Positions 10,340 to 14,008 of a stretch of 31,802 bases of DNA are shown here, piece after piece (position 1 is the stretch's first letter; every line of letters starts with the position of its first letter). This DNA is from an uncultured bacterium (GTDB lineage Bacteria > Hydrothermota > Tepidihabitantia > Tepidihabitantales > Tepidihabitantaceae). The notes beneath the pieces were generated by a model that was given only the letters and a program-made list of their open reading frames with translations, did no database searches and had not been told where the DNA came from. The position numbers were made by a program, and so were the translations under genes. The stretch is from positions 1-31,802 of the forward strand of contig CBDUZK010000001.1 in NCBI GenBank assembly GCA_965371675.1, in the 5' to 3' direction.

Positions 10340-11362
10340 ATGAAACAAAGAGCATGGCTCATCACGCTCATAGCGGTCATGGCGGTTGGTCTTTTGACCA
10401 CCGGCTGTGACAAGCTGTGGGAAGAGCCTGAGGCTGCCTTTGAGATTGCCCGCACCGTCTGCGGCGAGCCAAAGGTTGTCACGATCTGGGCCGGCCAGCA
10501 CATCGACGCCGGTACGGTAACGGTCCAGAACTGCGAGGACTCGATCTGCGTCAAGATTGAGACTTCGGGTGATTGGGTGATAACCGAAAGCCACTTCGCC
10601 ATCGGCAACTCGTGTCAAGAACTGCCGCGCACCAAGAAGGGCAAGTTGATTCCGGGTCAGTTCCCGTACCAGGTGGTCAATGACCCGCCGGTGACCGAGT
10701 ACCGGTACTGCGTCCCGATTGGCGACTGGGAGCCGGGCGACACCGTCTACATCGCGGTCCATGTTGTCGTCGCGCGCTTCGATGAGGGCGGCGAACTGCT
10801 CCAAGAAGAAACCGGCTGGGCCGACTCCTGGAAGGGCTGCTTCTGGTACGAAATCCAGGAGTGCTACAAGGACGTCACCCTGCCCGACTACCCGATCCGG
10901 CTCAGGGGGTTCTATCCCGGGACGAGCAGCTACTGGCGGATTGAACTCGACGGCATCAACGAGACCGGCTACAACGTCTGGAACGGCGACCAGTGGCTTG
11001 GCTGGTGCTCGGAGAAGACCGTCGGAATGTACCCCGGTCGGTGGTACACGGTCACCCTGCTCTCAAGCCAGGACCCGAACATGCCCGACCGGGTGAAGTA
11101 CGGCACATACCGCGGCCTGCGCCTCTGGGGCTCTGTCAACTGGCTGTTGAACAACAAGCCGACCGGCCTGACCAACGCGCAGATGCAGAACATCATGTGG
11201 TACCTGGTTGGTGAGTTGGCCAGCAAGCCCAGCGGTCTGGAGACCTACATTGACCAGGCCATGGGCCACAACGACTTCCGGCCCGAGATCGGCCAGTGGA
11301 TTGCGGTTATCACTCTCACACCTCAGACCGTCCAGCTCTGCTTCATCGAAGTCGACCCATAG
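10340..11362 (+). CDS. Lipoprotein with two extracellular domains; C-terminal domain thioester-domain-like
   Basis: SD AGGAGG at 10327-10332 and lipobox LTTG-C. Domain 1: 'WAGQHIDAGTVTV...KLIPGQFPY'. Domain 2 has 'GWCSE' and 'QMQNIMW'. Confidence 0.8.
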   Translation: MKQRAWLITLIAVMAVGLLTTGCDKLWEEPEAAFEIARTVCGEPKVVTIWAGQHIDAGTVTVQNCEDSICVKIETSGDWVITESHFAIGNSCQELPRTKKGKLIPGQFPYQVVNDPPVTEYRYCVPIGDWEPGDTVYIAVHVVVARFDEGGELLQEETGWADSWKGCFWYEIQECYKDVTLPDYPIRLRGFYPGTSSYWRIELDGINETGYNVWNGDQWLGWCSEKTVGMYPGRWYTVTLLSSQDPNMPDRVKYGTYRGLRLWGSVNWLLNNKPTGLTNAQMQNIMWYLVGELASKPSGLETYIDQAMGHNDFRPEIGQWIAVITLTPQTVQLCFIEVDP

Positions 11363-11687: not shown

Positions 11688-12398
11688 GTGGGACTGAGCG
11701 TCACGAGCCTGGTGTTGGGAATCGGGGCGATGCTCTCCGGCCCGATTGCCGGCGTCCCGGCAATCATCCTCGGCTGGATTGCGCTGGCACGCGGGAAGCC
11801 GGGACGAGGCATGGCGATTGCGGGCGTGATCACCGGGGCGTTCGGGACCGTGATGGTGTCGATACTCCTCCTAGGCGCGGGCATGGCGTTGACGCGGCTG
11901 CACGAGGAGAATCGCCGGGGTGAAGTCTGGCGGAACATGTGTTTCGTGCACACGGCGATGGAGAACTGGTATATCACCCACCTCGGAACGTACCCGGGCC
12001 CGGAGGTTTCGTGGGCCCCGGACGTGGACGAAACCGGTATGGCCGGTCATTTCCCGGCCGACGATGACGGGACATCGCCGTTCTTTCCGGTCAATCCGTA
12101 CACGGGTAAACACTACGCGCCCGGTACAGACCTGTTCTACTTCCCCGACTACCTGATTCAGGGGCAGCGCGAGATTGTTGACGGCTCGCAGCCCGGCTGT
12201 CCTTACCAGGACCTGGCCGCACCGGGGGGAAAGCCCGGTACAATCCTGGTGTTGGGCTGGACGAACACCGGGGATGGCGAGCGCCGGCTGGAGGAATACG
12301 TGGTGGTCGGCTACAGCAGGAAGACCAACGAGCCGCTTCACACCGACAAGTGGCGCGACGGCACAGGTGTCAGGACGTACCGCGTCCGGTACAACTGA
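11688..12398 (+). CDS. DUF4190-like membrane anchor fused to a pilin/pseudopilin-like domain
   Basis: 'GLSVTSLVLGIG..PAIILGWIAL..GRGMAIAGVITG' resembles DUF4190. 'RRGEVWRNMCFVHTAMENWY...GTYP' resembles a pilin alpha-helix. Confidence 0.6.
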   Translation: MGLSVTSLVLGIGAMLSGPIAGVPAIILGWIALARGKPGRGMAIAGVITGAFGTVMVSILLLGAGMALTRLHEENRRGEVWRNMCFVHTAMENWYITHLGTYPGPEVSWAPDVDETGMAGHFPADDDGTSPFFPVNPYTGKHYAPGTDLFYFPDYLIQGQREIVDGSQPGCPYQDLAAPGGKPGTILVLGWTNTGDGERRLEEYVVVGYSRKTNEPLHTDKWRDGTGVRTYRVRYN

Positions 12399-12407
12399 GG
12401 CATATTG

Positions 12408-13202
12408 ATGCCGGGAAGACTGGCGGACACGATGGTAAAGCTCTCAGCCGGCTGCCTGGCAGCGGCCGCAATGCTCGTTTGCTGCGGCGTCGCGTCGGCA
12501 CAGGACATGCCGGGCGAGCCGAAGCTGTACGAAGTACGGCAGACGTACGCGCTGCCGGTGGCAGACTACCTGTCCCTGTACATCGATGCTTACGGCGCAA
12601 ACGTGACGCTCGAGAACGGACCGGCGGGGCTGGTCGAGGCGGTATTTCACGTCGCCGATACGCTCCACCCGCCGGTATTCGACCGATATGTCTGGGCCGA
12701 CAGCGGGGAACAGGGTTCGTTCCAGTTCTCCCGGCCCGAGGACGACCCCGGCGCAATGAAGGGCGAACTATGGGCGATTCGCGTGCCCCGGGACATGGAT
12801 TTCGTCAGCATCTCGTTCGCCGGGTTTGCCGACGTCGCGCTCTGGGAGGTCGACACCCTGACCACATACTTCACAGCCGATTCCGCCAATCTCCTCATGG
12901 ACCTGAGCAGCCTCGAGTCGGGCAGGATTACCATGATTGCCGAAGCGCGGACCGGCGACATATTTCTCTATGTACCCAGGACCGCGGACGTCGCCGTATT
13001 CGCAAGCTGCACGCTGGGCGTGTTGAACGCGCCGGGATTCGTCGAAACCGACCTGGCTGAGTACGCACCGGAGGTGAAAATCGAGTTCCCCGTGCCTAGA
13101 CAGGGCCGACGTTATGCCCCGGCAGCCGGGGGTGGGGCAAAGGTCGTCCTGATTGCCACTGCGGACCGCGGCGACGTGAACGTGGTGCTGGTCGACCCCT
13201 AG
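12408..13202 (+). CDS. Secreted hypothetical protein, beta-rich (toast-rack/DUF4097-like)
   Basis: Signal peptide 'AAAAMLVCCGVASA-QD' and repeated beta-strand patterns. The family call is tentative. Confidence 0.55.
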   Translation: MPGRLADTMVKLSAGCLAAAAMLVCCGVASAQDMPGEPKLYEVRQTYALPVADYLSLYIDAYGANVTLENGPAGLVEAVFHVADTLHPPVFDRYVWADSGEQGSFQFSRPEDDPGAMKGELWAIRVPRDMDFVSISFAGFADVALWEVDTLTTYFTADSANLLMDLSSLESGRITMIAEARTGDIFLYVPRTADVAVFASCTLGVLNAPGFVETDLAEYAPEVKIEFPVPRQGRRYAPAAGGGAKVVLIATADRGDVNVVLVDP

Positions 13203-13244: not shown

Positions 13245-13272
13245 TTGACAGGTGACGGCGAAAACGTAGTAT
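13245..13272 (+). promoter_or_regulatory. Promoter of the DUF2769 lipoprotein
   Basis: TTGACA-N16-TAGTAT; SD AGGAGG at 13296-13301. Confidence 0.6.
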
Positions 13273-13306: not shown

Positions 13307-13699
13307 GTGTTGAAGAGTTCGCTGTTCATTTTCCTGGCGTCCATGCTGGTGGCCGGCTTCGTGGCTTGCCCCGGACCGGAGCAGGTGGCGGAGAAGCCAC
13401 CCGTGCCGGCTGAAGAGAAGCCGATGACCGAAGAACAGAAGATGCAGTTCGTGATGGAGAACTGCGTCTGCAAGAACTGCCCGAGTTGGACCCCGGCCTG
13501 TGACGAGCAAGGTATATGGGGCGGCTTCTGCGCAATCGGGAAGACCGAGTGCATCACCAAGGAGCAGGGCTGTATCTGCCCCGAGTGCCCGGTCACGAAG
13601 AAGATGGGTCTGAAGTGGGGCTACTACTGCACCCGCGGCTCCGCCGAAGACATGATGAAGAAGGAAATGGAGAAGAAAGAGGGGGAAACGGGCGGATAG
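13307..13699 (+). CDS. Lipoprotein carrying a 10-Cys DUF2769-like domain
   Basis: Signal peptide plus lipobox FVA-C, a Pro/Glu linker, then CxCxxCPSW..C..GFC..GK..CI..GCICxxCPV..YYCxxG. Start set by SD spacing (13307 or 13310). Confidence 0.8.
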   Translation: MLKSSLFIFLASMLVAGFVACPGPEQVAEKPPVPAEEKPMTEEQKMQFVMENCVCKNCPSWTPACDEQGIWGGFCAIGKTECITKEQGCICPECPVTKKMGLKWGYYCTRGSAEDMMKKEMEKKEGETGG

Positions 13700-13705
13700 C
13701 CCGGT

Positions 13706-14008
13706 TTACTCCGCGCCTTCTTTTTTCGTAGGACTGTCGACCATCGCCGCCCGCCGCCTGCGGGCGGCGCGCTTTCGTCGCTGAAGCCACAGCTGAATGA
13801 AGATGATACTGCCGGTGACCGCCATGAACGCCAACCCTGCCGCCAGTGCGAGTGCGACGTACCTGCTGACCAGCGACCAGTTGTGCAACAGGCGTACATT
13901 GCGCTGGAGGCTGTCCAGCCGCAGCAGAAACCCGGTCACCGCCTGCAACAACACCAGCGGTGCGATGGTGATACCGGTGTATCGGTGCAACTTCCTGACT
14001 AGAATCAT
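13706..14008 (-). CDS. Small PepSY-associated-TM-like membrane protein
   Basis: SD AGGAG then MILVRKLHRYTGITIAPLVLLQAVTGFLL. The 'RKLHR..G...TG' motif and a second TM helix preceded by 'LLHNW'. Confidence 0.75.
   Translation of the reverse strand: MILVRKLHRYTGITIAPLVLLQAVTGFLLRLDSLQRNVRLLHNWSLVSRYVALALAAGLAFMAVTGSIIFIQLWLQRRKRAARRRRAAMVDSPTKKEGAE

Follow-up and report, generated by a model that had tools for sequence, protein, structure and literature searches.

The window analysed here is the whole stretch of 31,802 nucleotides (nt) at positions 1 to 31,802 of the forward strand of contig CBDUZK010000001.1, which belongs to the assembly of an uncultured Hydrothermota bacterium (GCA_965371675.1; 2.6 Mb, 443 contigs, 91% complete). 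It carries three genes of the Pfam family DUF2769 (PF10967), referred to below as copies A, B, and C, and these are the only DUF2769 genes found in a scan of the whole assembly. The family, which occurs in anaerobic bacteria and archaea, comprises small proteins rich in Cys that have not been characterised; most are 70–110 amino acids (aa) long and carry no signal, and the papers that mention DUF2769 in the literature searched assign it no function. Copy A shares the full-length domain and its eight core Cys residues, and adds a lipoprotein signal, a Pro/Glu-rich tether, and the LKWGYYC...GSA signature of its clade. Copies B and C have no signal, as the preliminary description of this locus had stated; they lack a hydrophobic N-terminus and start directly at the first helix of the domain. 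Here, we mainly focus on the export of copy A, on the clade to which it belongs, and on the role that such a lipoprotein may play at the outer end of an electron route across the membrane. The features concerned are collected in Table 1.

Table 1. Features of copy A and of the genes beside it in the window.
Feature	Position	Strand	Basis
Copy A gene, DUF2769 lipoprotein precursor, 130 aa, GTG start, TAG stop	13307..13699	+	Open reading frame, Pfam match, 20 full-length homologues
Sigma-70-type promoter, TTGACA-16-TAGTAT	13245..13272	+	10 of 12 consensus positions
Shine-Dalgarno sequence AAGGAGG, 5 nt 5′ of the start codon	13295..13301	+	Unchanged in 6 of 6 aligned loci
Signal peptide, residues 1–20 (n-region MLK, h-region SSLFIFLASMLVAGFVA)	13307..13366	+	Hydropathy, dN/dS, helix in model
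Lipobox Cys21, predicted lipidation and signal peptidase II cleavage site	13367..13369	+	Cys at h-region end in relatives
Pro/Glu-rich tether, residues 22–39 (PGPEQVAEKPPVPAEEKP), 18 residues	13370..13423	+	Codon-wise length variation, unstructured in model
DUF2769 domain, residues 40–115	13424..13651	+	Pfam match, invariant columns, AlphaFold model with predicted local distance difference test (pLDDT) 79.6, Cys statistics
Two-helix membrane protein, 100 aa, PepSY_TM-type motifs KLHRYTG and LLHNW	13706..14008	-	Sub-threshold Pfam scores, homologues beside DUF2769
Rubredoxin::TPP (thiamine pyrophosphate) enzyme, 593 aa	14157..15938	-	Pfam Rubredoxin and TPP_enzyme_N, _M, _C
Copy C, DUF2769 without signal, 90 aa	15969..16241	-	Pfam match
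DUF1622 membrane protein, 119 aa	16364..16723	-	Pfam, 86.7 bits
Rubredoxin::glutamate-synthase-type flavin mononucleotide (FMN) domain protein, 498 aa	16769..18265	-	Pfam Rubredoxin and Glu_synthase
Copy B, DUF2769 without signal, 83 aa	18296..18547	-	Genome scan

The N-terminus of copy A reads MLK-SSLFIFLASMLVAGFVA-C21-PGPEQVAEKPPVPAEEKP-M40TEEQK..., after which the Cys domain follows. Its n-region contains one Lys (K3), its 17-residue h-region is uncharged with a mean Kyte-Doolittle hydropathy of 2.19, and the sequence G-F-V-A-C21 satisfies the PROSITE lipobox pattern PS51257, which calls for a basic n-region, an uncharged h-region, and a Cys at positions 15–35. A full-length structure model of low confidence (pLDDT 62.7), used for the pattern of helix and linker only, places a helix at residues 6–17 and no structure at 18–41. 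The signal peptide, FVA-C lipobox, Pro/Glu linker, and 10-Cys domain of the preliminary description are all confirmed, base for base. In a scan of the genome, Lgt (PF01790, 193 bits, contig C143) and LspA (PF01252, 105 bits, contig C197) were found together with TatC, LolA, and five Omp85-family proteins, a set from which it follows that the cell has two membranes and the required processing machinery. Targeting of copy A to the twin-arginine translocation (Tat) pathway, rather than to the general secretory (Sec) pathway, was rejected on the grounds that the n-region has K3 only and no twin arginine of the [ST]-R-R-x-F-L type, and that the h-region is strongly hydrophobic, where Tat signals are expected to be weakly so.

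One rival explanation places the start of translation at the internal Met40 (MTEEQK), so that copy A would be a third cytoplasmic DUF2769 protein and the apparent signal an untranslated leader. It draws on the invariance of Met40 and on a public record, CP070680.1 (locus L004, WOR-3 bin69), in which the NCBI start of the orthologous protein P0008 (115 aa) lies at the equivalent Met. However, at this locus (L004:5890-6348) the DNA upstream of the annotated Met contains AAGGAGG, then an ATG and the entire lipoprotein signal, which makes the annotation a miscall and the true product 152 aa long. Moreover, Met40 is equally conserved inside copies B and C and inside archaeal homologues, where it is not a start, and it is therefore a structural residue; no GGAGG-type site precedes it in the window. 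When the upstream DNA of six loci (the window, L018, L004, L014, L006, and L007) was aligned, an invariant TTGACA, a spacer of 16–17 nt, and a TAnnAT were found upstream of the start of the signal, followed by AAGGAGG and, five bases on, by a start codon aligned with position 13307; the window and L018 have GTG here, the other four loci ATG. The promoter of copy A is the sole sigma-70-like site between 13000 and 14200, a region in which 0.1 sites are expected in shuffles. Codon-level comparison with relatives gave proportions of synonymous differences (pS) of 0.29–0.88 against proportions of nonsynonymous differences (pN) of 0.08–0.41 in the signal codons, and a ratio of nonsynonymous to synonymous substitution rates (dN/dS) of about 0.2–0.4 where pS was low enough for correction, with the domain in the same range; such purifying selection implies that the signal is translated. 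Length differences in the linker (residues 22–39) between relatives all amount to whole codons and stay in frame. On the conserved upstream start signals and the selection acting on the signal codons, the internal start was rejected, and we consider it very improbable; on this evidence, copy A has a promoter of its own, and its translation begins at GTG 13307. The start at an internal Met, which the preliminary description had named among the findings that would refute its export proposal, is thus set aside. In a separate observation, the orthologue at L033:2899-3297 (WOR-3 SpSt-1182) has a normal domain, and its upstream frame contains no hydrophobic segment, which may be a frameshift or an assembly error.

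Relatives of copy A show that such signals are a recurrent property of part of the family. A word-indexed search returned 20 full-length homologues in two groups, the first with signals like that in the window and the second with [ST]-R-R-[GSD]-F-[LV] followed by a lipobox, that is, Tat lipoproteins. When one genome from each GTDB species was scanned, 80 loci were returned, with full-length matches in WOR-3, Stahlbacteria, Fermentibacteria, Aegiribacteria, and Sabulitectum, and domain-only matches in Methanosarcinales, Thermoplasmatota, Aminicenantes, and others. Three classes of export signal separate cleanly by the mean hydropathy of the h-region: 36 distinct Sec-type signals without twin arginine (2.53, standard deviation 0.32), 13 twin-arginine signals of a class termed TatX (1.77, standard deviation 0.09), and seven twin-arginine signals of an Aminicenantes-type class termed TatY (1.10, standard deviation 0.07). 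The order, with Sec above Tat, is that expected for signals of the two pathways. A Cys ends the h-region in all 56 distinct exported relatives compared (36 Sec-type and 20 Tat-type), from which we conclude that the signal of copy A did not arise by chance. A small residue (Ala, Gly, or Ser) occupies position -1 in 29/36 Sec, 13/13 TatX, and 6/7 TatY signals; among the Sec-type signals it is Ala in 28/36, and position +2 is Gly or Pro.

These comparisons also bear on the possibility that the N-terminal segment is an uncleaved signal anchor, which would make copy A a type II membrane protein with its domain still in the periplasm. The Phe at position -3 of its lipobox, which departs from the strict consensus L-[AS]-[GA]-C, and the bulky residue (V, M, F, or L) at -1 in 7/36 Sec-type relatives would fit an anchor. 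Phe at -3 is, however, the norm of the clade, occurring in 25/36 Sec-type relatives, and the Cys directly after every h-region compared, the predominance of small residues at -1, the match to PS51257, and the presence of Lgt and LspA all speak for cleavage, so that we regard a retained anchor as improbable. The sequence evidence thus shows copy A to be a true lipoprotein, exported through Sec and of the signal peptidase II type, and after the predicted lipidation and cleavage at Cys21 the tether should hold the domain at the periplasmic face of a membrane. With the paralogues B and C remaining cytoplasmic, the domain very probably occurs on either side of the inner membrane, as had been proposed at the outset; the start site, the selection on the signal codons, the behaviour of Met40, and the processing machinery all point the same way.

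The phylogenetic position of copy A was examined in a quick, weakly resolved maximum-likelihood tree of 220 domain sequences and 78 columns. One branch, with a Shimodaira–Hasegawa-like approximate likelihood ratio test (SH-aLRT) value of 86, unites 58 rows that carry the WGYYC signature, copy A among them, and 51 of these are exported. The remaining rows are the miscalled P0008, the degenerate L033, the short clusters P0022 and P0023, and three signal-less Caldisericota genes. The TatY group, which has a long helical segment before the domain, lies outside this branch. Copies B and C are placed among the signal-less majority; B is nearest to a Stahlbacteria gene, and C has 96% identity to its counterpart in locus L088. 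Copy A therefore belongs, on the tree and the signals together, to a distinct and mostly exported DUF2769 clade of WOR-3 and Fermentibacterota that uses either Sec or Tat lipoprotein signals. Across the family, which an exhaustive profile search resolved into 595 clusters at 50% identity, export signals appear in about 6–8 of the best 150 of these representative clusters, a figure that is not an underestimate, as the profile was built mostly from exported members.

The domain itself matches the Pfam DUF2769 profile with 63.1 bits (cut-off 22.8) over residues 53–109, covering profile positions 1–57 of 57, and scores 64.3 bits in the whole-genome scan. Its ten Cys residues are at 53, 55, 58, 65, 75, 82, 89, 91, 94, and 108, and eight of them form two CxCxxCP...C units (53, 55, 58, 75 and 89, 91, 94, 108) that are invariant in two alignments; many Met residues are also present. 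The other two, Cys65 and Cys82, lie outside the core and vary in the family: both are present in 103 cytoplasmic members, neither in 40, and one in 11, while the Tat lipoproteins have both in 16, neither in nine, and one in none, and in the Sec lipoproteins they are not paired (both in nine, one in 28). The rows of this count were picked by the eight-Cys pattern, so that the invariance of the core there is partly by construction, but unselected alignments show the same invariance. The arrangement of the eight Cys in two CxCxxCP...C units suggests two four-Cys metal sites. In this respect DUF2769 resembles the 2×[4Fe-4S] ferredoxins (Fer4), which are likewise small and have eight Cys in two repeated motifs, each with Cys-Pro; the spacing differs, however (CxxCxxCxxxCP in Fer4, CxCxxCP in DUF2769), and DUF2769 has no match to Fer4, to a PDB sequence, or to a known fold. 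A search of the ESM Atlas returned DUF2769 clusters only. Separately, a subfamily was noticed in which Cx3Cx2C takes the place of the first CxCxxC (e.g., P0070, P0121, and P0129).

The mode of export places constraints on what these sites may hold. The Tat signals in two independent groups suggest folding, and probably cofactor loading, before export. Sec export, on the other hand, delivers an unfolded chain, and the Sec-type members, copy A included, must fold in the periplasm, which argues either against a classical iron-sulfur (Fe-S) cluster or for the periplasmic loading of another metal. A metalloprotein family with both kinds of signal is not without precedent: clade I NosZ is exported by Tat and clade II NosZ by Sec, although NosZ is a copper enzyme, unrelated to DUF2769 and not a lipoprotein.

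The genes beside the exported copies point towards electron transfer. Next to copy A in the window lies the gene of a 100-aa membrane protein in which each of the two helices is preceded by a PepSY_TM-type motif, and whose His8 (in KLHRYTG) and His41 (in LLHNW) recur in five close homologues as well as in a paralogue from the same genus with 40% identity. Close homologues of this protein (phmmer E of about 1e-47 to 1e-51, over 100 aa) are encoded directly 3′ of, and co-directional with, a Sec-lipoprotein DUF2769 gene in three Fermentibacteria or Aegiribacteria genomes (L036, L038, and L041), and a further homologue follows a copy resembling C in L088. In six TatX loci (L005, L012, L035, L046, L048, and L049), a DUF4405 protein of 75–87 aa is encoded immediately 5′ of the exported DUF2769; these DUF4405 proteins carry two His on one helix and also score, below the cut-off, against the cytochrome b family Ni_hydr_CYTB. 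The 100-aa protein of the window scores 20.4 bits against DUF4405, which is below threshold. At L049:209-3054 (Candidatus Stahlbacteria) there is a compact operon in which a DUF4405 protein (85 aa), a Tat-lipoprotein DUF2769 (127 aa), a cytoplasmic DUF2769 (82 aa), and a rubredoxin-TPP enzyme (592 aa; E = 9e-275 against the window enzyme) follow one another, so that the parts found in the window are arranged in one direction. TatY loci have as neighbours a DUF6529-cytochrome c membrane protein, a rubredoxin-like::FeThRed_B protein, a thioredoxin-like protein, and sometimes rubredoxin-TPP; at L074:1839-2555 and L068:3287-3715, both Aminicenantes-type, the exported gene stands beside DUF6529-cytochrome c and a fusion of a rubredoxin-like domain to a ferredoxin-thioredoxin-reductase beta subunit. 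The TatY group is thus like copy A in placing an exported DUF2769 beside membrane redox proteins, and differs from it in having twin-arginine signals and a cytochrome c neighbour, whereas copy A has a Sec-type signal and a two-helix His-bearing neighbour without a cytochrome c domain. The genes of a membrane-anchored DUF59 protein and of DsbD_2 lie next to the exported copy, in divergent orientation, in 12 WOR-3 loci, and an exported thioredoxin-fold DUF2703 protein adjoins Tat members in L005 and L012; phmmer found no DUF2703 match near the loci of the GTDB-species scan.

Two further observations concern these neighbourhoods. At L053:2578-3225 (Candidatus Aerophobetes), DUF2769 is fused to an N-terminal membrane segment that contains His, and basic residues after the last helix suggest that the DUF2769 domain there faces the cytoplasm; this fusion ties the family to membrane proteins. 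On the other side of copy A, the three genes 5′ of it, all on the plus strand, encode envelope proteins: a 340-aa lipoprotein with LLTTGC (10340-11362), a DUF4190 membrane protein (11688-12398), and a protein of 265 aa that has a signal and matches no Pfam family (12405-13202). None of the three is linked to DUF2769 in the relatives examined.

The best explanation of these data taken together, to which we assign a probability of about 0.5, is that copy A, besides being a genuine Sec-exported lipoprotein, serves in the periplasm as a redox partner with a metal cluster, where a trans-membrane electron route has its outer end. The DUF2769 domain would bind a Cys-ligated metal centre through its two CxCxxCP...C units, and the cytoplasmic rubredoxin-fused TPP and FMN enzymes, with copies B and C, would deliver electrons. 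The 100-aa protein would then pass these across the membrane, probably as a dimer with two b-type haems on His8 and His41, an assembly that would offer two His at each membrane face, and copy A would take them up in the periplasm for a periplasmic acceptor. This chain is proposed on the likeness of the neighbour to PepSY_TM reductases and on the L049 operon. FoxB and similar PepSY_TM proteins are membrane reductases of four helices, in which conserved His at the two edges of the bilayer bind two b haems and whose substrates are periplasmic (10.1101/2021.01.28.428567; PMC13038864). With such di-haem reductases (FoxB, FpvG, and CrpH) the neighbour at 13706-14008 shares two helix motifs (H-R-x-x-G ... 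T-G) and one His per membrane face, but it differs in having two helices only, no PepSY domains, and a score below the cut-off, and its haem binding and dimerisation are inferred; copy A, as a separate lipoprotein, would replace the periplasmic cap. The suggestion in the preliminary description that the exported domain could be a redox or metal protein or an electron acceptor gains some support from the conserved membrane electron-transfer neighbours.

The same neighbours admit a second reading, in which copy A is not an electron carrier and instead binds, chaperones, or stores Cu(I), Zn, or Fe as a periplasmic lipoprotein whose thiolates capture the metal; the PepSY_TM-like or DUF4405 neighbour would reduce metal, and DsbD_2 would move it or maintain the thiols in reduced form. 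The eight invariant Cys together with the many Met of the domain would suit such a role, as would the DsbD_2 and DUF59 neighbours and the mixture of Sec and Tat signals in one clade, which fits centres loaded in the periplasm; in addition, ferric siderophores are reduced by known PepSY_TM proteins, which have also been proposed to help supply copper (10.1101/2021.01.28.428567; PMC13038864). Against this, the loci read contain no conserved link to metal transporter or efflux genes, the cytoplasmic members are tied to rubredoxin-fused oxidoreductases, which points to electron transfer, and the Aminicenantes-type group has cytochrome c and ferredoxin:thioredoxin-reductase-like neighbours. We therefore hold metal storage or delivery to be possible but doubtful. 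A parallel is provided by the copper storage proteins Csp1 and Csp3 of methanotrophs, in which a Cys-rich domain likewise occurs as an exported (Tat) form and a cytosolic paralogue; these are four-helix bundles with an established copper function, and DUF2769 follows the same exported-plus-cytosolic logic but has no sequence relation to them.

A third reading sees copy A as a periplasmic thiol-disulfide relay, or merely as a disulfide-stabilised domain, whose Cys pair after Sec export and are reduced or reshuffled by a DsbD_2/CcdA-like transporter and thioredoxin-like proteins. The arrival of the chain in unfolded form is compatible with it, and so are the divergently adjacent DsbD_2 of the WOR-3 loci, the exported DUF2703 beside Tat members, and the thioredoxin-like gene of the Aminicenantes-type group. 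Yet the same eight Cys are present in the cytoplasmic majority, where stable disulfides are unlikely, the Tat signals of sister lineages suggest that the domain folds, and probably binds its cofactor, before it is exported, and the DsbD_2 and DUF59 genes of the window genome lie on another contig, so that disulfide chemistry as the primary role of copy A appears rather unlikely.

Several findings weigh against the proposed role of copy A as an electron-transfer lipoprotein. The PepSY_TM assignment of the 100-aa protein is below threshold (PF03929, 22.8 bits, and 27.6 for the L041 orthologue, against a cut-off of 28.8) with a single helix motif matched. Its gene and copy A are convergent, with stops 6 bp apart, and are thus not co-transcribed in the window; as a side observation, no intergenic terminator lies between the stops at 13699 and 13706, and the sole minus-strand terminator-like hairpin falls inside copy A (13465-13444). 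In same-genus relatives the exported copy stands beside DUF59/DsbD_2 and the mini PepSY_TM-like gene is on another contig, and no conserved redox neighbour was found in about 12 Fermentibacteraceae or Sabulitectum loci, so that the Sec-type clade has no universal neighbour. Regarding the metal centre, copy A matches no Pfam family other than DUF2769 at E ≤ 0.01, neither Fer4 nor any other cofactor family; a PDB sequence search with the family profile gave no match at E ≤ 1, and a Foldseek search of the domain model against PDB gave none at E ≤ 10. An Fe-S cluster in particular is hard to reconcile with the Sec-type members, because their chains are exported unfolded and Fe-S assembly is not known to take place in the periplasm. 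The departure of position -3 from the lipobox consensus belongs to the same list.

The present position of copy A is probably secondary. Among the 31 genomes searched (G000 and 30 relatives), six have DUF2769, and three copies occur only in the genome of the window. The exported copy of the relatives read lies between DUF59/DsbD_2 and a 281-aa gene; in the window genome itself, the corresponding locus (L011, contig C86, about 334-2428) keeps DsbD_2, membrane-anchored DUF59, the 281-aa gene, and BrxC/D, with neighbours 60–62% identical, and has no DUF2769. Copy A shares 73% identity with the gene in CP070680.1, which comes from another genus, against 48–58% with same-genus copies. Its greater closeness to a gene from another genus and the DUF2769-free locus on C86 suggest relocation or re-acquisition, and we consider it probable that copy A came in one of these ways to stand beside the B/C operon. 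Base composition gave no signal of horizontal transfer and is uninformative here, as the GC content is flat at 0.61–0.65 from about 3 kb to 28.5 kb, the region of the locus included.

What is new here is a Sec-type lipoprotein clade of DUF2769 with a Tat-lipoprotein sister group and with links to two different minimal His-bearing membrane proteins. With an exported, lipid-anchored clade that uses Sec and Tat signals interchangeably and repeatedly stands beside genes of membrane electron transfer, the family acquires a concrete role that can be tested, and at least one public annotation, which starts the gene at the wrong Met, has hidden the signal. More tentatively, DUF2769 as a whole may be a new small Cys8 metal-cluster electron carrier that works on both membrane faces and is connected by di-haem proteins of minimal size, with two helices each (PepSY_TM-like or DUF4405 dimers), forming a hitherto undescribed route from cytoplasmic rubredoxin-fused oxidoreductases to the periplasm in uncultured anaerobes (WOR-3, Fermentibacterota, and Aminicenantes). 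If this were true, the Sec-type members would imply that a Cys-ligated centre is assembled in the periplasm; the exported clade itself already hints that little-known anaerobic phyla may move electrons across the membrane by such a minimal route.

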